NCBI GenBank assembly: GCA_951406725.2
Contig: OX597821.1
Span: 110,236,001-110,300,000 of the forward strand
DNA from: Octopus vulgaris
Lineage: Eukaryota
DNA length: 64,000 bases
Direction: 5' to 3'
Shown here one piece after another: positions 2,434 through 55,640 of this stretch (position 1 is the stretch's first letter; every line of letters starts with the position of its first letter). Under the pieces are notes generated by a model that did not search any database, had not been told where the DNA came from, and saw nothing but the letters and a program-made list of their open reading frames with translations. The position numbers and the translations under genes are program-made.

Positions 2434-2522
<89 letters not shown>

Positions 2523-2529
<7 letters not shown>

Positions 2530-3402
2530 AATAAAATATATGCATATATATAAACATATATGTACGTACCTACCTCTACATGTACATATACACGCATATA
2601 TGTGTACAGGACACCAAAAAGACGTCGAACACATAGAGAGACGAAAAACATAGACACAAACCAAGGAACAAGACAGGCAAAAAAAAGAGATACAGGACAA
2701 TAAGCACAACGAAAAATCCCCTTCTTCAGTCGCTAAAGTTTCATCTACTAAACGTTTCGAAGGATAAAAGCGAGACGTATACTTCGAATGAAAAATTCCT
2801 TCCTGCGAAAAGCAAATCAATTAAAATTCTGAGATCTTTTCGCAGAGGGGTAAAAAAAGCAAGACGGTAACGACAGTACAAACATATAAACAGTAAAAAA
2901 TATATATATAAACAGTAGAAAAATAAATATATAACAGTGAGAGACAGGACAAGGAGAACAAGATAAGAAGGGCTGTTAACGCCAGACGAAAAAAGTATTG
3001 CAAACGCTGGATTATAGTGGACGACGAGAGAGGAAGATGTCGACCAGTGGCCTTAGAAGGCGGGCGAGAAAGGACAGGATAGCAGTACGACGGAAGTAAC
3101 GTCGCAGATGGACGACGGGAATGGGGGAGGAGGAGCAAGAGGAAGAGAGAGAAGAAGGGGAATGGTGCGAGGAGACCATGAAGAACAGTGAGGGGGAGAG
3201 AGAGAGGAAGAGACAAGTTAAGTGAGGGAAAAAAAGACGAAAAAGGGAATGGGAGAGAAAGAAAGAAAGATGCAGAGTCGCGTGAGAGTTAATATCAAGG
3301 CGAACTTGATAAACAGAACAATCTTACTTAATAGGGTGCGTGCGTTTAGTCGTATAATATGTTAATAAAATATATGCATATATATAAACATATATGTACG
3401 TA
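2523..3402 (-). mobile_element. Non-autonomous ribozyme-bearing retroelement (Penelope-like/retrozyme-like, family 1) with 46-bp terminal direct repeat
   Basis: ATATGTTAATAAAATATATGCATATATATAAACATATATGTACGTA occurs at 2523-2568 and 3357-3402. Both ends abut (TA)n. It carries the hammerhead-like motif and is homologous to about 15990-16375 in the opposite orientation. Confidence 0.7.
2718..2850 (-). ncRNA. Putative hammerhead ribozyme with non-canonical pseudoknotted topology (family 1, copy 1)
   Basis: Minus strand: CCCCU-[CUGCGAAAAG..CUUUUCGCAG]-GAAGGA..UUUCAU..ACGU C^UCGCU-UUUA-UCCUUC-GAAACGU..AUGAAA..AGCGA-CUGAAGA-AGGGG. Core CUGANGA, GAAA and GUC are intact. Predicted cleavage is between 2774 and 2773. 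Confidence 0.75.
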
Positions 3403-3414
3403 TATATATATATA

Positions 3415-3679
3415 ACGGGAAGCTTTATGAAAATAGACAAAAGACGAAGGCAGGTGGAAAACAAACGAACAATTGTATTAGTATGGCGCTCAGGAAATAT
3501 AAATAAAACAAGTCTTTAACGTTTCGAGCCTACGCTCTTCAACAGAAAGATACACAGAGAGAAAAAAACACAGAAAGAAGGAGAGAAAAAAATGCGTGCA
3601 GTAACTAACGAACCAACATGGCGATCTGATTTCGGCCAGAAGTCAAAGATCAAACATGAGACGCGAGAGCGAAATTAGG

Positions 3680-5854: not shown

Positions 5855-8423
5855 CCCATTCGTGCTGAAATTTTTCTAGTGAATGAAATTACCTGAAAAT
5901 GCACAGATATTATTATTTTGACCCAAATAACATCTGAAATAAATTTCATTGAAATCCGTTTGATATTTCCTGAAATAATCACTGTCAGTTATAACATACA
6001 TCACGCACTGTGCATATGAATCTTTAATAAGCTTGTTAACTTTGCAATTTACTTATTTAGAGTATAATCAAAGTATTATATCTGACCATAGCTTTACTAT
6101 GAAAATGATTCCTCTTCACATAAATAAGATATCAAGGAAAACAGAAAATTTATTTAGTAAAATATATCCTTTTGAAATGAAACTATTCAGCTTTGCTAAA
6201 CATGATAATTCTTGAAACATTTAGGATGAACTGCTACATCACATTTTTTACATATGAAATGACGTTTCCCAGAGCACTCATTGCATCTCCGTTCATTTGG
6301 AATATATTCAATCCAGTGCTCAACACCATCATACCTTGCATTGTCTTTCAAATTAGATGTGCGTTTTCTTTGTTTTCTTTGAAATTTTGGAGTGCCATAC
6401 TTTTTCATTAGAGTTAGAGACATGTTTTCGATGAAATTGCATAATGTAATTTTGTGCCCTGCTCTATTCATCAAGATGCATGAATTTCGGGTTGCCACAG
6501 ATACAAAATATGACAAAATAGGACACCATTTATTTTGCCACATTAGAATCCTATAGGAACCGATCTTATGACCCAGAAGGTCAGCAAATCCCATATATTT
6601 GTTGTAATTTTGGATGTTTTCAGGCTGTGGAACTGGAACATATTTCTTTTGAGGCCTGTCATAGCGCTCAACCGTGGACATTTTATAGGTTTCAAAGTTC
6701 GATAGCAGAACAACATCGTTATTATCTTTCCATTTCACAGCGACTATATTTGAAGTGGACTTGAAGTCAGCTGCCCCTCTGAGGCGTGCTTTCATTTCAG
6801 TTTTCGTTTTGAAAGGACATCTAGCTGTCTTATTTTCTCTGCAGGTTCTCGATGCACAGATTCCTTTCTCAAAAAGTTTCTCCATCACTTGAATACTTGT
6901 GAAATAATTATCAAAAAATATTTCGAAACCTTTACTGTCTGGTGCTCCTACAGCATCAATGAGATCAAGGACAACGTTCCCACCGAGGCCAAATGCATTT
7001 TCGGTTTCATTGGGACCGTCTTTCTTGCCAGTGTAGATGTCAAAAGCATGTATATTTCCCTGTTGACAATAAAGGACCCAAATTTAGAAACTAAACCGAA
7101 TTGGTTTCCCTTTTATAAATTGTTTGGCATAGGGCTTGCCATAATATGGAGCCATACTTTCGCCAACATAGATGTTCTCCCAAGCCACCATATTCCTTGA
7201 ATTTTCTTTTTGTAAGTGGCCAGGTAGAGGTCTGAGTTTGAATGCACGATCGTCTCCTGAAGCATTGGCATCATCCACTAAATGGATATTTCTTAATATA
7301 CTCTCAAATCTGTCTCACCTCATGCTATTTTGTAAACTTTTTGGAACATTGTCTTCAGATGACCACTGCCTTCTTTTATTAGGAAGTGGACAGTGAGCTG
7401 ACAGAAGCAATCCACCTGAAGAATTCATACAGCTCTGATTTGTATACATTCAGAACTTTACCGTTTTGTACAGCATATCGGTTTGTTTGTTCTACAATGT
7501 CATCCAGTAATTCATCTGTGGAGAACAAACTAAATTGGATAATACTGGATTCGAGCAAGATTTTGCTTCCTCAGATATATCTACAGGCTCATATGAAGTT
7601 GAAACACGATTCGCCGCTTCGTTTTTCTTCCAATCTCTTGTTTTACTGAATTTAGTTTGTTTTAGATTTCCTGTAACTTCTTCAATTTCTTCAGGCACAT
7701 CCTGTTGACAAGAAATTCGTGCGTCAGTTTCCACAAGCCCTCTTTTCAGTCGAACCGAGGAACCTACAGCCTCATCATCTGAAGCACCACTATCGCCATC
7801 GAAGAGTTCTATATTGTGAAGGAGACCAATGTGAACATCGCCTCTGTTGCTCAGCTCTTCCAATAATGCTAGGGCTTCTGTTGTTTTAAGACTGAAAGAA
7901 AAAATTACAATGATATAGAGATGTGTGGACGCAAAATTTATTGTAAATAAAAACCAGACTATTTCAAATAAATCATATTGGCTATTTATAATGCGAAACT
8001 ATATCAACACCTAAAATATTAGGTGAGTTGTTTTATGTCTAAGTTTGCTGCGGATGTCCGTTATAAAAGACAGGGTGTTATATTTTATTTTGTTTACAAC
8101 ATAAATCTCAAATGGTAACAAATTATGCATCTCACCTATGATCATAAAAACACATAAGAGACCACAACAATGCCTACATGATTAAATAATTATAAATGAT
8201 TGGTTCACCATTTACCGCGCGTCCTGCTTGTACTCGCCACGTTGCTCAACTGTGGTTGTTACAAGTTATAGTGTAAGCATTTATTCAAACAGACTGCATG
8301 CACGTTAAGAACATGTTTCATTCTTTGATACAGATCATACACAAATCATAATTTGTATCAAGTATTTGTTTTATACCCTTATAAATTAAGTGTCAGTTTA
8401 ACCGGACGACCGGCATGAATTGA
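5855..8423 (-). mobile_element. piggyBac DNA transposon (PGBD3-like), decayed
   Basis: TTAA at 5851-5854 and 8424-8427. Imperfect TIRs CCCATTCGTGCTG and (rc) TCAATTCATGCCG. Contains a fragmented transposase. Confidence 0.88.
6196..7890 (-). pseudogene. piggyBac transposase pseudogene (frameshifts/stops)
   Basis: Motifs ESMAPYYG..KQFIKGKPIRFSF, WKDNNDVVLLSN, NYNKYMG..DL and the C-terminal cysteine-rich domain RRCNEC..FICKKCDVAVHPKCFKNYH, spread over ORFs 7492-7863, 7084-7278 and 6196-6888. Confidence 0.92.
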
Positions 8424-8963: not shown

Positions 8964-9609
8964 ACTTTCTACCATAGGCACAAGGCCTGAAATTTGGGGG
9001 GCGGGGACTAGTGAAGTACGTCGACCCCGATGCGTAACTGGTACTTAATTCATCGAAGGCGACGAGCTGGCAGAAACGTCAGCACAGCGGCGAAATGCTT
9101 AGCGGTATTTCGTCTGCCGCTACGTTCTGAGTTCAAATTCCGCCGAGGTCGACTTTGCCTTTCAGCCTTTCGGGGTCGATTAAATAAGTACCAGTTACGC
9201 ATTGGAGTCGATATAATCGACTTAATCCGTTTGCCTGTCCTTGTTTGTCCCCTCTATGTTTAGACCCTTGTGGGTAGTAAAGAAATAGATACTTAATTCA
9301 TCGATTCTGAAAGGATAAAAGGCAAAGTCGACCCCGGCGGCATTTGAACTCAGAACATGAAGGCAGACGAAATACCTATTTCTTTACAACCCACAAGGGG
9401 CTAAACACAGAGAAGACAAACAAGGACAGACAGACGGATTAAGTCGACCATATCGACCCCAGTGCGCAACTGGTACTTAATTTATCGACCCCGAAAGGAT
9501 GAAAGGCAAAGTCAACCTCGGCAGCATTTGAACTCAGAATATGAAGGCTGACGAAATACCGCTAAGCATTTCGTCCGGCATGCTAACGATTCTGCCAGCA
9601 CGCCGCCTT
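8964..9609. mobile_element. Nested/tandem tRNA-derived SINEs (family A, OR1/OR2-like)
   Basis: A + copy at 9057-9289 sits inside a - copy, with TSD TACTTAATTCATCGA; a - strand dimer follows. Core GCCTTTCATCCTTTCGGGGTCGATAAATTAAGTACCAG resembles the Meta/MESC SINE domain (from memory). Confidence 0.9.
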
Positions 9610-15769: not shown

Positions 15770-16375
15770 CACACTCCTCCTCATCTCTCTCACAACCGGC
15801 CAAATACTTCCTTTTGCATGCGGCCTTCTAACTGTAAATACACGGCTTTCTTGCGCTCCTTGAATCTCTCTTCGTCTAGGCAAAAGAGGCCATCTTTGGT
15901 TGTTTTCTTGTGTGTTTTTATTTCTTGTATTGTACTTTTATTTTGTATTTTATTTTGTATTTTATTTTTTATTTTATTTTGTAATTTTATTTGTATCGTT
16001 TTTACGTCCTGTTTGTGTCACATTTTGTTCTTTCCTTGTTTTTACCCCTCTGCGAAGTAATTTCCTTTAATTTCTTCGCAGGAAGGGCTAGTTCGACGAG
16101 TCGTGTTCTGTCCTCACCTTCGAAACACGCTGGAGTTGAACTAGGGACAGCTGATGAAGGGGATTTTTCCTTGTGTAGTTTGTCTAGTACTCTGTTTTTT
16201 CTTTGTAAAAAAAGGTTCGTTCCATGCTCGTTTTTACGTTTTCGTTCTCGTTGAGTTCTGCGTCTATTTGTGGTGTCCTGTACTCACGTATATATATTTA
16301 TATATGCATGTATATATACATATAGATGTATGTACGTACATATATGTATGTATGCATATATTTTATTTATTACAC
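15770..16375 (+). mobile_element. Ribozyme-bearing retroelement family 1, copy 2
   Basis: Homologous to the reverse complement of 2523-2860 (GGGGATTTTTC.TTGTG, GGTGTCCTGTAC, GTACGTACATATATG, ATGCATATATTTTATT); 3' end abuts (TA)n. Confidence 0.65.
16045..16162 (+). ncRNA. Putative pseudoknotted hammerhead ribozyme (family 1, copy 2)
   Basis: CCCCU-[CUGCGAAG..CUUCGCAG]-GAAGG-G-CUAGUUCGAC..CGUGU U^CUGUCC-UCA-CCUUC-GAAACACG..GUUGAACUAG-GGACAG-CUGAUGA-AGGGG. Predicted cleavage after 16107. Confidence 0.78.
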
Positions 16376-18847: not shown

Positions 18848-18969
18848 TTTCTTTCCTCAGTCGAGTTCCAGATTTCTTTGCAGTTTCATCCGGTTATACT
18901 CGAGACTGCTCCAATCTGGCCAGCCACAAGGTAAATCTAAGCTAAGAGCACTAGATTTCTTGGAAGAAA
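18848..18969 (-). ncRNA. Putative pseudoknotted hammerhead ribozyme (family 2, copy 1), within repeat ~18793-19120
   Basis: Minus strand: UUUCUU-[CCAAG..CUUGU]-GGCUGG-CCAGAUU-GGA-GCAGU C^UCGAGU-AUAA-CCGGAU-GAAACUGC-AAAGA-AAUCUGG-A-ACUCGA-CUGAGGA-AAGAAA. Predicted cleavage between 18904 and 18903. Confidence 0.75.
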
Positions 18970-19199
18970 ACAGAGAATGTATACGAAAACAAAGACGGAA
19001 AAAAGGAGAAATGGTACACAAATACAAATGTAAGCAACATGACATTAACAACAGGTGTCTTTCAACTAAGGACGAATTAAATTAAGCTGGCGTGTGTGAA
19101 AGTGAAGCCTTGCTGCAGGAACAGCGCAGGTGTGGGTGTGTGGTAAGTAGCTTGCTTACCAAGTAACCTGCATACTTCCCATGAGTCTTTGAGAATTTC

Positions 19200-22679: not shown

Positions 22680-22802
22680 TTAGTTTCCTCAGTCAAGCTC
22701 CAGATTATCTTTATAATTTCGGCTGGTTATACTCGAGATTACTCCAACCTGACTAGCCCCAAGGAAAAACTAAGCTAAGAGAACTAGATACCTTAGAAGA
22801 AA
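22680..22802 (-). ncRNA. Putative pseudoknotted hammerhead ribozyme (family 2, copy 2), within repeat ~22563-23050
   Basis: Minus strand: UUUCUU-[CUAAGG..CCUUGG]-GGCUAG-UCAGGUU-GGA-GUAAU C^UCGAGU-AUAA-CCAGCC-GAAAUUAU..AAUCUGG-A-GCUUGA-CUGAGGA. Compensatory and wobble changes relative to copy 1; P0 is decayed. Confidence 0.72.
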
Positions 22803-23705
22803 GCAGAGAATGTATACGAAAACAAGGACGAAAAAAACCGGAGAAATGGTACACAAATACAAAAGCAAATAAGGCCATTACCAACAGGTGTCTCTCGACT
22901 AAGGACGAATTAAATTAAGCTGGTGTGTTTGGCAGTAAAGCCTTACGGCAGGGACATATGTTTTGACAGGCACGGGGAAGAATATAGATGTTGCACGGAT
23001 TGTAGACGAACCAAGAAAGAAATGTCAGGCTTGGTCGAACACCGGTCATGCGACAGGCTTCTTTCAGTGTTCGTCTACAAAATACACTCATAAGGTTTTG
23101 GTCAGCTCGAGACTATAGTAGAAGACGCCTGCCCAAGGTGCCATGCAGTGGGACTGAACCCGGAACCATGTAGTTGGGAAGCAAGCTTCTTACCAGAGCC
23201 ACGACACTTCACACACACACACTCTCTCTCACACACACACCAACACTCTATCTATCTATCTCTCTCTCTCACACACATACATTCACACACACAGTGACCA
23301 TTTGTACACTCTCCTGCCTTCAAAAAGACACATCTCTTTCCATATCTCTTTCCACCTACCGGTCAGTCACTTTTCGGTCATGCAATGACACACGTGCGTT
23401 TCTTTGGACTATCTCTCGTTTCTGCTTTTTCTTTCTCTTGGGACTTTTTCCTGTTTCCGGCCATTCTCGAAACGTCGTTTCCACTCCAATTTTCCCCTCT
23501 AACACTTTCACTGACATCACTGTAGTATATTGATTGTGTACGTCTCATTGACTTTAGCTATTTATTCCTATTTTTTAATTTATCACATACAAGCATGTGC
23601 ACAAACATATCCACATACTTATCTATCCAGCTAGCTATCTAGCTACCATCCTAGAAATTTATCTACTTACCTCTCTACTCATCTCTGCTCACCTACTCAT
23701 CTATC

Positions 23706-31949: not shown

Positions 31950-32010
31950 TAAGCTTTTCTGATGAGGCTTAATAAGATCGAAACAAGTCCGTGGTTATCC
32001 AGAAGTCTGC
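31950..32010 (+). ncRNA. Hammerhead-core-like motif, degenerate
   Basis: GCTTTT-CTGATGA-GGCTTAATAAGATC-GAAAC-AAGTC..AGAAGT; stems are imperfect. Confidence 0.35.
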
Positions 32011-45124: not shown

Positions 45125-46640
45125 TGATAAGTGGTATGAATGCCAACCGTTATCAATCACAGACAATGATCAACTGACAATCTGTACCAGTGGTTCTCAA
45201 CAAGGGTCCATATAAGATGTTGCTGTTAAAGCTTACGTGTAATAAATTAGTTACCCTAGGGCGGTGAGCTGGCAGAATCGTTAGCACGCCGGGTGAACTG
45301 CTTAGCAGTTTTTCGTTTGTCTTTACGTTCTGAGTTCAAATTCCGCCGAGGTCGACTTTGCCTTTCATCCTTACGATGGCGAGCTGGCAGAAACGTTAGG
45401 ACGCCGGGCGAAGTGCTTAGTGGTATTTCGTCTGCCGTGACGTTCTGAGTTCAAATTCTGCCGAGGTCGACTTTGCCTTTCATCCTTTCGGGGTCGATAA
45501 ATTAAGTACCAGTTACGCAATAGGGTCGATATAATCGACTTAATCCGTTTGTCTGTGCTTGATTGTCCTCGCTGTGTTTAGCCCCTTGTGGGCAATAAAT
45601 AAATAAGAAACGTTAGCATGCTGGGCGAAATGCTTAGCGGTATTTCGTCTGCCGTTACGTTCCGAGTTCAAATTCCGCCGAGGTCGACTTTGCCTTTCAT
45701 CCTTTCGGGGTCGATTAAATAAGTGCCAGTTACGCACTGGGGTCGATATAATCGACTTAATCCGTTTGCCTGTCCTTGTTTGTCCTCTCTGTGTTTAGCC
45801 CCTTGTGGGTAGTAAAGAAATAGGTATTTCGCCTGCCGCTACGTTCTGAGTTTAAATTCCGCCGAGGTCGACTTTGCCTTTCATCCTTTCGGGGTCGATT
45901 AAATAAGTACCAGTTACGCACTGGGGTCGATATAATCGACTTAATCCGTTTGTCTGTTCTTGTTTAGCCCCTTGTGGAAAGTAAAGAAATAGGTATTTCG
46001 TCTTTCTTTACGTTCTGAGTTCAAATTCCTCCGAGGTCGACTTTGCCTTTCATCCTTTCGAAGTCGATAAATTACGTATCAGTTGCGTAATCGACGGGAC
46101 CCCCCACCTCCCCCAAAATTTCGGGCCTTGTGCCTAGAGTAGAAAAGAATAAATTGGTTACGCTTCTACAATTCACAAAATATTCTAATTGTTTTTATAC
46201 AATTTCTAATGATATTTAATTATAAAATTATATTTTTGGAAATACCGAATGGCTGTAGAGGTCCAGCAGTGTAACATAGGAATCAAAGGTGTCCATAGAT
46301 AAAAAAAATGGTTGAGAACTATTGATTTACACAGATAAGAAGTTGTAATATTATCGATTAGCTATCACTGTTTTCCAGAAAGAGACTAAAAAATGGATCT
46401 TCATTGACATAGCTGAACCAGAAGACGAGAACTTTATAAAACCGGAGAAAGCGGAAAGGCATCAAGACCTGGCATAGGGCCTCAAGAGCGAGTGTAATAC
46501 TCATCGAGATTGGGGCACTTGGAACCATCTCAAAGAAGACTGAAACCTAGTGCGAGAAGTTGGAGCTACCAGACATCGTTGGAAGCACATAGTTGGCGGT
46601 CATAGTCGAAACAGCGCATGCGTTGTGAAGAGTGTTTGCG
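45125..46640 (+). mobile_element. R4/Dong RLE fragment containing a hAT-type MITE (~45188-46324), which contains a tandem SINE A array (45259-46150)
   Basis: DKWYECQP before the MITE, WIFIDIAEPED..IEIGALGTISK after it. MITE ends CAGTGGTTCTCAAC / GTTGAGAACTATTG. Array TSD AATAAATT(A/G)GTTAC. Confidence 0.8.
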
Positions 46641-49097: not shown

Positions 49098-49351
49098 CTC
49101 TTGCATAATTTTTATACATATCTTATGTAATTTAGTACACACAAACAATTCTTTATACATAGTACGGTAAGAAGCGGATTGGTAATGAAACAATTGTGAA
49201 GGTGCATGGCTATATAGTTACAGTAATCGATTCATGATCGTAAAGACGTGAGTTCGTTTCCCAGCAGCGCGTTGTATCCTTGAGCAAGATCTTTTATATC
49301 ACGTTGCTCCAGTCCATTCGCTCGGCAGAAAATTAGTAGTGCCTGTAAAAC

Positions 49352-49770
49352 GGCGAGCTGGCAGAAACGTTAGCACGCCGGGCGAAATGCTTAGCGGTAT
49401 TTCGTCTGCCGTTACGTTGTGAATTCAAATTCCGTTGAGGTCGACTTTGCCTTTCATCCTTTTGGGGTCGATAAATTAAGTACCAGTTACGCACTGGGGT
49501 CGAAGTAATCGACTTAATACCTATGTCTGTCCTTGTTTGTTCCCTCTGCGTTTAGCCCCTTGTGGGTAGTGAAGAAATAGGTATTTCGTCAGCAGTTACA
49601 TTCTGAGTTCAAATTCCGCCGAGGTCGACTTTGCCTTTCATCCTTTCAGGGTTGATAAATTAAGTACCAGTTGCGTTACGCACTGGGGTCGATGTAACAG
49701 ACTTAATCCCTTTCTCTGTCCTTGTTTGTCCCCTCTATGTTTAGACCCTTGTGGGCAATAAAGAAATAAG
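49352..49770 (+). mobile_element. SINE A dimer inserted into a family C SINE
   Basis: TSD AGAAAATTAGTAGTGCCTGTA on both sides; the host SINE spans about 49200-50030. Confidence 0.88.
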
Positions 49771-55053: not shown

Positions 55054-55640
55054 ATCTTTTCTACTATAGGCAGAAGGCTTGAAAGTTTGGGATGGGGGAC
55101 AGTCGATTACATCGACCCCAGTAATTAAATGGGACTTATTTTATCGACCCCGAAAGGATGAAAGGCAAAGTCGACCTTGGTGGAATTTGAACTCAGATCG
55201 AGCAGACTGACGAAATGCCGCTAAGCATTTTGCCCGGCGTGCTAACGATTCTGCTAGCTCGCCACCTTAAATAATTTTACCGTGTCCTTTATTTCGTCTG
55301 TCTTTATGGTCTGGGTTCAAATTCCGCAGAGGTCGACTTTGCCTTTCATCCTTTCGGAGTCGACAAATTAAGTATCAGTTGCGTACTGGGGTCGATCAAA
55401 TCGACTGCCCCACCCTCCAAACATTTCGGGCCTTGTGCCTGGAGTAGAAAAGAATATTACCGTGTCCCTTATTCCGTCTGTCTTCGCATTCTGAGTTCAA
55501 ATTCTGACGGGGTTGACTTTGCCTTTCATCCTTTCGGGGTCGATAAATTGAGTATCAGTTGCGTACTGGGGTCAATCTAATCGACTGGCTCCCTTTTCCC
55601 CAAAATTACGGGTCTTGTGCATAGACTAGAAAAGAATATT
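55054..55640. mobile_element. Cluster of SINE A copies (one -, two tandem +)
   Basis: Family A core and tail type 2 repeated. Confidence 0.85.

Follow-up and report, generated by a model that had tools for sequence, protein, structure and literature searches.

A candidate split-core hammerhead, opened between A9 and G10.1 and closed by a helix, in repeat families of the Octopus vulgaris genome and in Naiad elements

The minus strand of positions 18848-18969, within the 64,000-nt stretch of Octopus vulgaris DNA analysed here (the window), carries all the core elements of a hammerhead ribozyme in the order S-G-C, and raises the question of how a hammerhead could be wired when the bases that follow CUGANGA pair elsewhere than in stem II. 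In the published scheme (Eckert et al. 2023, PMC10085705), hammerheads consist of three blocks, C, G and S, held to be uninterruptible; with unbreakable blocks six permutations are allowed, including the non-circular classes SGC, CSG and GCS, and the order SGC has been validated. According to the available text of that study, natural CSG sequences number two only, no genome of a known organism was found to contain SGC RNAs, and non-circular permutations are known from metatranscriptomes. An earlier note on the window had proposed that two extra helices, P0 and P1, are grafted into the catalytic core between A9 and G10.1, and that both ends of the RNA leave the core at this position.

Read 5' to 3' on the minus strand, the motif starts with P0a (UUUCUU, 18969-18964), the 5' strand of a helix by which the opened core is closed, and ends with P0b (AAGAAA, 18853-18848), which comes immediately after A9; the two form six Watson-Crick (WC) pairs out of six, as the note had read them, and delimit 18848-18969 exactly. 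The hairpin P1 (18963-18926; arms 18963-18956 and 18933-18926, 5/8 pairs) is flush between P0a and stem II, and the spacers of zero nucleotides reported on both its sides are confirmed. Upstream of the cleavage site are found Xa, the 5' strand of stem II, whose first base is G10.1 (18925-18920, pairing with 18888-18893), Ya (18919-18913), which belongs to a helix between the distal sides of stems I and II, called 'I' in type SGC, and forms 7/7 WC pairs with Yb, and the 3' strand of stem III (18909-18905, 5/5 WC with 18880-18884). The GUC triplet places C17 at 18904, with a predicted cut at 18904/18903, and is followed by the stem I strand 3' of this site (18903-18898, 6/6 WC with 18861-18866). 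Block G (18893-18880) comprises Xb, the 3' strand of stem II (18893-18888), GAAA (G12-A15.1, 18887-18884) and the 5' strand of stem III; then come Yb (18874-18868), stem I' (18866-18861) and CUGAGGA (C3-A9, 18860-18854). Four nucleotides link stem I to stem II. An outer stem on the same strand (18980-18975 with 18841-18836, 6/6 WC) prolongs P0 past an internal loop, a feature of the A/I/G lineage described below, found in the folds of families A, G and I. The copy at 18848-18969 is decayed in stem II and P1: stem II contains three WC pairs, two G-U pairs and one mismatch, position 10.1-11.1 is G-U and not G-C, and the junction pair of P1 is broken.

This copy sits in a shortened, older member of a repeat family (family A; 18848-19123, minus strand), which matches 22684-22956 at 83.6% and a tandem unit at 86%; the second family-A copy of the window (22680-22802, minus; position 22692) has a decayed P0b. 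Intact motifs are contributed by two other families: family C at 16045-16162 on the plus strand (position 16151; predicted cut 16107/16108) and family D at 2718-2850 on the minus strand (position 2729; predicted cut 2774/2773). All six helices are complete in both and the flush layout is that of family A with other helix sequences, which bears out the note's statement that the families of the window share it. Over 181 nt, 4 of the 40 best genomic matches of family C and 37 of the 40 best of family D are identical, the window copies among them, and the family-D motif belongs to a young retrozyme-like insertion (2477-3402, minus) of about 1.1 units of a ~835-nt repeat with a (TA)n end, 99% identical to the tandem array L094.

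By itself, CUGANGA occurs in the window about as often as expected by chance (35 observed vs 29.9 +/- 4.8). Rfam gave no match, to hammerhead models or others, at gathering threshold in the 64 kb, as expected for a motif whose order is permuted and which is pseudoknotted. Unconstrained folding (z = -1.87) did not recover the core, nor did unconstrained folds of the four window copies, as is to be expected when helices cross; a core with two pseudoknots is beyond what nested folding can display. Just one canonical-order hammerhead-like motif passed in the window, at 31959 (plus strand), with stems I and III present and a weak stem II; it is unrelated to the split-core motif. The minimal motifs with an extra A to which the note pointed do occur, at 3545 (minus), 17857 (minus) and 40752 (plus), but each has one core mismatch and none has an exact core. 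They are of the type found in Penelope-like elements (PLEs), with the extra A after A9 and a palindromic stem III stub, and the one at 3545 lies at a pile-up of many contigs. Also in the window are an abundant interspersed repeat of ~330 nt that carries CUGACGA without a hammerhead layout (9277-9605, 45378-45909, 49351-49679, 55080-55260) and a stop-free frame of 295 aa (6196-7083, minus), which resembles a fragment of a piggyBac-type transposase.

Family queries were run on the 2.8-Gb genome, keeping the best 40 matches per query (one query matched only itself), so that these match lists are no measure of copy number, and new families were found with a descriptor requiring the S-G-C core only. 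Nine families (A, C, D, E, F, G, H, I and M), with 14-64 unique copies each, were compared; family J (4 poor copies) stands outside this comparison, and the P0 and P1 of F, G and H were parsed in a second pass after the first automatic parse gave none. The nine families represent about four sequence lineages: A/I/G, C/D/E/H, F and M. A MAFFT alignment across families was out of structural register. Twenty 10-kb stretches chosen irrespective of the motif contained a single partial match to family H and a single weak descriptor match, which indicates that copies are unevenly spread.

In all nine family majorities, CUGANGA, GAAA, the NUH triplet (A15.1-U16.1) and G10.1-C11.1 are conserved, and core variation is confined to N7 (G, U, A) and N17 (C, U, A), while all helix sequences differ. 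Stems I, II and III measure 5-6, 5-6 and 4-6 bp with family-specific sequences, and the Y helix 5-10 bp in eight of the nine families and three consecutive pairs in family I; in families A, C, D, E, F, G, H and I, stems I and II are connected by 3-5 nt. Stem II built with the upstream strand has 5-6 bp and starts with G10.1-C11.1 as a G-C pair in every family; the partner strand lies 65-80 nt upstream. Sequence comparison gives the order P0a-P1-IIa-Ya-IIIb-NUH-Ia-IIb-GAAA-IIIa-Yb-Ib-CUGANGA-P0b.

P0 is present in 9/9 families with pairs as different as UUUCUU/AAGAAA, CCCCU/AGGGG, GACCCU/AGGGUC, CCCU/AGGG, CCUUU/AAAGG, CCUUC/GAAGG, GGGG/CCCC and the 10-bp CCCUAAUUCU/AGAAUUAGGG. In six families (A, C, D, E, H and M), none of the three joints around P0 and P1 has a gap, and the gaps there are 1/1/0 nt in F and 2/0/2 nt in I. 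Family G has P0 without P1, joined by 3 and 2 unpaired nucleotides (20/21 copies). Two added helices, as claimed in the note, are not obligatory. In family A, the majority has 6/6 pairs in stem II and 8/8 in P1; 362 of 383 cells are paired in P0 (64 unique copies) and 473 of 508 in P1, and both AUC/GAAAU and GUC/GAAAC combinations are present. Family M, found by the scan for the S-G-C core only, has a P0 of reversed polarity with gaps of zero. This GC-rich family (L252, minus strand, core at plus-strand coordinate 2828; L258-L277) shows covarying Y-helix letters, and the hexamer GGGGCC is shared by Xa and the stretch made of P0a and the start of P1, which looks like a duplication and permits an alternative fold.

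The motif is not a product of chance. In Markov-resampled sequence totalling 3 Mb, core plus upstream stem II came up 4 times, and when the upstream 75 nt were dinucleotide-shuffled, a control that breaks P1 along with P0, the observed P0+P1 score was reached in 0/400 shuffles in seven families and in 1/400 in family M. In a P0-only control, which took in families A, C, D, E and I (the parser gave no parse for F, G, J and H), other upstream anchors with an equally long P0 were rare in A (4/63) and absent in C (0/59), D (0/55), E (0/58) and I (0/62). When P0 strands were swapped between families, pairing was kept only inside a lineage. Predicted folding depended on how the core was represented. 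With the core modelled as a 75-nt unpaired loop, P0 was predicted in 3/27 copies of C and 1/14 of D, and another register was favoured in 23/57 copies of A; with the core replaced by a 3-nt spacer, a model that favours P0 by construction, it was predicted flush in 37/57 (A), 22/27 (C), 10/14 (D) and 13/26 (E) copies, and was predicted in 9/24 (F) and 2/5 (I). Altogether, the comparisons indicate that the motif is a real, conserved RNA structure.

The note had itself named the alternative, stem II formed from bases 3' of CUGANGA; read in this manner, the motif would be an ordinary type SGC with stem II past one extra A, and P0 and P1 would be chance pairings in pyrimidine-rich flanks. Such flanks do supply alternative partners, and past the extra A, families C, D and H could form a 4-bp stem with two G-U pairs (G-C, G-U, G-U, G-C). 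However, 3' bases offer 0-2 WC pairs of 5 in all nine families, without any run in A, F, G, I and M, where such a stem is impossible, whereas the upstream strand covaries with Xb in 9/9 families, and Ya comes next after it, as it does in SGC. An ordinary SGC hammerhead with a 3' stem II is largely refuted by these counts and we regard it as highly improbable; the split connectivity of stem II is very probably correct. It follows the note's proposal that the RNA enters and leaves the core at A9|G10.1, closed by P0, which is supported by the nine genomic families and by six published Naiad tails.

In known hammerheads, CUGANGA is continuous with stem II or separated from it by 1-2 inserted nucleotides at most, a continuity that is lacking here. 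Neither is the motif one of types I-III, which have a cyclic C-G-S order and a three-way junction without core pseudoknots, since its order is S-G-C and its helices cross. It has the order, the short linker and the joining helix of type SGC; Block C, however, is not intact, and for this reason we do not file it as type SGC. As read from its strand order, the motif is best described as a CSG-class hammerhead circularly permuted at A9|G10.1, and no derivative of types I-III. The note's suggestion of an opening point beyond types I-III therefore stands for the opening point itself, but the motif belongs to the non-circular SGC/CSG/GCS class by its S-G-C block order.

The split-core hammerhead would be a new topological variant and its wiring seems undescribed. 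Core insertions of 1-2 nt only are listed in the accessible part of PMC3088659. 'Variants with additional helices' are mentioned in PMC13725137, citing Weinberg 2015, Eckert 2023 and Forgia 2023, and the available portions of Eckert 2023 and Forgia 2023 yielded no description of such a helix-added variant. Neither a split-core hammerhead nor a fold for the Naiad half cores was found in the literature covered, which left most subscription journals and the supplements of Eckert 2023 outside.

The note had also invoked, as a precedent, the nucleotide inserted between A9 and G10.1 in the plus strand of CChMVd, the chrysanthemum chlorotic mottle viroid. Insertion at this position is indeed tolerated, and an extra nucleotide there is conserved in minimal PLE motifs (PMC4209133), but the precedent is weaker than stated, as its effect depends on the nucleotide: an extra A lowers the rate moderately, U is favourable, and C or G is strongly detrimental (PMC3705267). 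By analogy, nucleotides other than A or U after A9 would count against the full model proposed below.

We consider it likely that the motif is a self-cleaving, non-circular (SGC/CSG) hammerhead permuted at A9|G10.1, with the rest of the RNA inserted in the catalytic strand, a P0/P1 junction, and a role and origin linked to Naiad elements. The core would fold like that of other hammerheads, where G12 is the base, the 2'-OH of G8 the acid, and A9-G12 lies under G10.1-C11.1 (PMC11300833), here as a sheared pair; P0 would keep A9 beside G10.1. In families with a flush P1, P0, P1, stem II and A9-G12/stem III could form a four-way junction in which P0 stacks on P1. With zero spacers, P0a-P1a and C11.1-G12 would be continuous strands and A9-P0b and P1b-G10.1 would cross over; such a strand path suggests a stacked four-way junction geometry, of which families G, F and I would be looser versions, P1 being a stabilising option and no requirement. 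The ribozyme would serve to process multimeric transcripts into single units. P0, II, Y and III would still hold the 5' product once the RNA is cut, so that the ends would be clamped and ligation into circles favoured; circles could then be copied into (TA)n by target-primed reverse transcription with a Naiad-type Penelope-like RT/GIY-YIG endonuclease.

The split-core hammerhead is probably active, and the two explanations that also accept its connectivity differ in what they make of P0/P1 and of catalysis. P0 and P1 might be peripheral: a bare break at A9|G10.1 would be tolerated since II, Y, III and I pre-organise the core, and P0/P1 would act in end-clamping, circularisation or RT recognition without a stacked junction. 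Family G, which lacks P1, is nonetheless young and abundant (its best 40 matches are 96-100% identical), gap lengths vary in F and I, P0 has 4-5 bp in families C, D, H and M and 3 bp in the octopus Naiad, and the catalytic groups are G8 and G12, not the A9-G10.1 link (PMC11300833). Yet P0 is found in every family, and spacers of zero nucleotides at all three joints in six families with unrelated sequences, as well as in the coral Naiad tail, argue that stacking geometry is under selection; we hold this explanation to be unlikely. The other one, which appears quite improbable to us, is that the fold is non-catalytic or conditionally so, a signal for protein binding or packaging that derives from a hammerhead, or a ribozyme dependent on a protein cofactor, kept for recognition by the Naiad enzyme. 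Slow rates are on record for SGC and CSG ribozymes (0.004-0.19 per min, PMC10085705), minimal hammerheads of metazoan PLEs cleave poorly in vitro (PMC4209133), and unconstrained folds of the four window copies lack the core. The last point has little bearing on a core that is invisible to nested folding, whereas variation exactly at the catalytically free N7 and N17, with the catalytic positions, NUH and G10.1-C11.1 fixed in all families, is what an active ribozyme predicts, and monomer processing fits one motif per tandem unit.

The carriers themselves, judged by their sequence organisation, are retrozyme-like. They hold a single motif per tandem unit of ~835 nt (D), ~790 nt (C) or ~775 nt (A), and the stop-free frames seen over the units are of low complexity only, none of them protein-like in appearance. 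Insertions have a fixed 3' end, in (TA)n, and scattered 5' ends: the 3' ends of family D fall at +210/211 in 21/23 loci where the array ends, and those of family C at +231 to +236 in 16/30 loci. A fixed 3' end with variable 5' ends is the signature of target-primed reverse transcription in non-LTR elements, and the pattern observed here is the signature of this process acting on multimeric or circular RNA. A circular-RNA model has been proposed for PLEs (PMC4209133). Contigs of four presumed RNA runs cover the family-D element, contigs being unable to show ends or circles and tandem DNA mimicking back-joins. Some family-A copies (L008, L263 region) carry inverted 5' pieces of their own element, as described for PLE insertions. 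A Penelope-type GIY-YIG fragment was considered as the partner of family G and rejected: it lies upstream of just 2 of 26 G loci, with microsatellite and other sequence in between and no Pfam match. Fragments of Penelope-like endonuclease frames are seen near family-G copies at L137:2-763 (plus), L124 and L128:304-1068 (minus); the L128 frame has a weak GIY-YIG match under the cut-off (E 0.002) and the L137 frame none.

Naiads are PLEs that target (TA)n and lack a canonical hammerhead, eight of them being annotated with an 'HHR_half_core' (Craig et al. 2021, PMC8557442); in the available text of that study, the core halves are unexplained and no fold is given. We parsed by eye the tails of 25 of the 54 consensus records in its File S5, the identity of each being taken from table order. 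Six are split-core, one is a degenerate split-core, five are intact CSG and 13 gave no parse. The split-core tails, as read by eye, come from a coral (P0 8, P1 6, no gaps), a hydrozoan (P0 8 WC, P1 8), a cubozoan (P0 5, P1 9), a ctenophore (P0 10, P1 8, with a stem I of just 2 bp) and octopus (two records, P1 8/9, P0 with 3 WC pairs and a mismatch); the degenerate-looking one is from a squid. The nematode and spider tails, those preceding Naiad_Asuum, Naiad-1_Nbra, Naiad-3_Nbra, Naiad_Hcon and Naiad_Lpol, read as complete CSG with a Y helix, and the spider CSG tail has one extra U after A9. Ostracod tails (Naiad-1, -2 and -3_Dst) have, in the same reading, a helix-flanked CUGACGA behind a run of C that fits neither fold and may represent a further arrangement.

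A 16-mer taken from the octopus Naiad motif matches the octopus genome exactly at 456 places (reversed control, 0). At one of these loci, L279, a script parse gave an upstream stem II of 6/6 and a P1 of 8/9, a 3' stem II of 5 pairs including a G-U being also possible. No RT frame was found within 1.4 kb upstream at the 5 Naiad-type loci examined out of the 456. The layout of the Naiad 3' ribozyme is common to Naiads (published tails parsed by eye, L279 by script) and to the carrier repeats. The fold most likely derives from a Naiad 3'-UTR ribozyme, and its intact CSG form would have survived in nematode and spider Naiads. Together, the split fold and CSG would explain the 'half cores' of Naiads and their apparently missing hammerhead. 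A wider reading, which we find somewhat more probable than its contrary, is that an active discontinuous-strand hammerhead, organised around a P0/P1 four-way junction at A9|G10.1, represents the overlooked ribozyme of ctenophore, cnidarian and cephalopod Naiads and of non-autonomous elements derived from them; taken with the CSG of nematodes and spiders, non-circular permutations would then be common in animal genomes, the three-block rule would be broken, and a step from one permutation to another would be recorded.

These findings provide a testable answer to why Naiads seemed devoid of hammerheads and to what the half cores are. Since the split-core motif breaks Block C, existing descriptors and Rfam models miss it and more permutations are possible. 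Non-circular permutations are now seen in repeat families within an animal genome and, from tails parsed by eye, in Naiads of several phyla. The arrangement suggests a route by which tandem or circular elements could give rise to permutations, and it marks a core site where helices or aptamers might be grafted.

Comparison with known systems places the motif next to several of them. With type SGC (HRIMA-1, PMC10085705) it shares the S-G-C order, a linker of 3-5 nt between stems I and II and the helix joining these stems, here Y; in SGC, however, the 5' strand of stem II follows CUGAnGA, and the study takes Block C to tolerate interruptions of no more than 1-2 nt, whereas here Block C is opened and closed by P0 (and P1), and the motif occurs in high-copy repeats of an animal genome. 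Its cyclic block order equals that of type CSG, and a CSG ribozyme turns into the split-core motif when Yb-I'-CUGANGA is shifted from its 5' end to its 3' end, but CSG opens between stem III and the C block and leaves A9-G10.1 intact. CChMVd (+) and the minimal PLE hammerheads tolerate an insertion at A9/G10.1, the position opened here; theirs is one bulged nucleotide in a canonical order, while the split-core motif has an open strand closed by helices. An extra helix and a pseudoknotted stem II region are also found in the hammerhead with helix IV (PDB 8YDC; PMC11300833), where C3-A9 runs into G10.1-C11.1 and the extra helix lies outside that link. Among mobile elements, the Naiads with an 'HHR_core' or 'HHR_half_core' (PMC8557442) have (TA)n targets in common with the carriers described here, but are autonomous RT/GIY-YIG elements. 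Animal non-LTR retrozymes (Cervera and de la Pena 2020, PMC7229834; Li et al. 2026, bioRxiv 2026.07.22.740005) are non-coding and, like the putatively non-coding carriers, consist of tandem repeats with one hammerhead per unit and a proposed mobilisation by PLEs through circular RNA; theirs is a type I hammerhead in units of 150-450 bp, in contrast to the 775-835-nt units reported here, whose non-circular split core is missed by type I descriptors.
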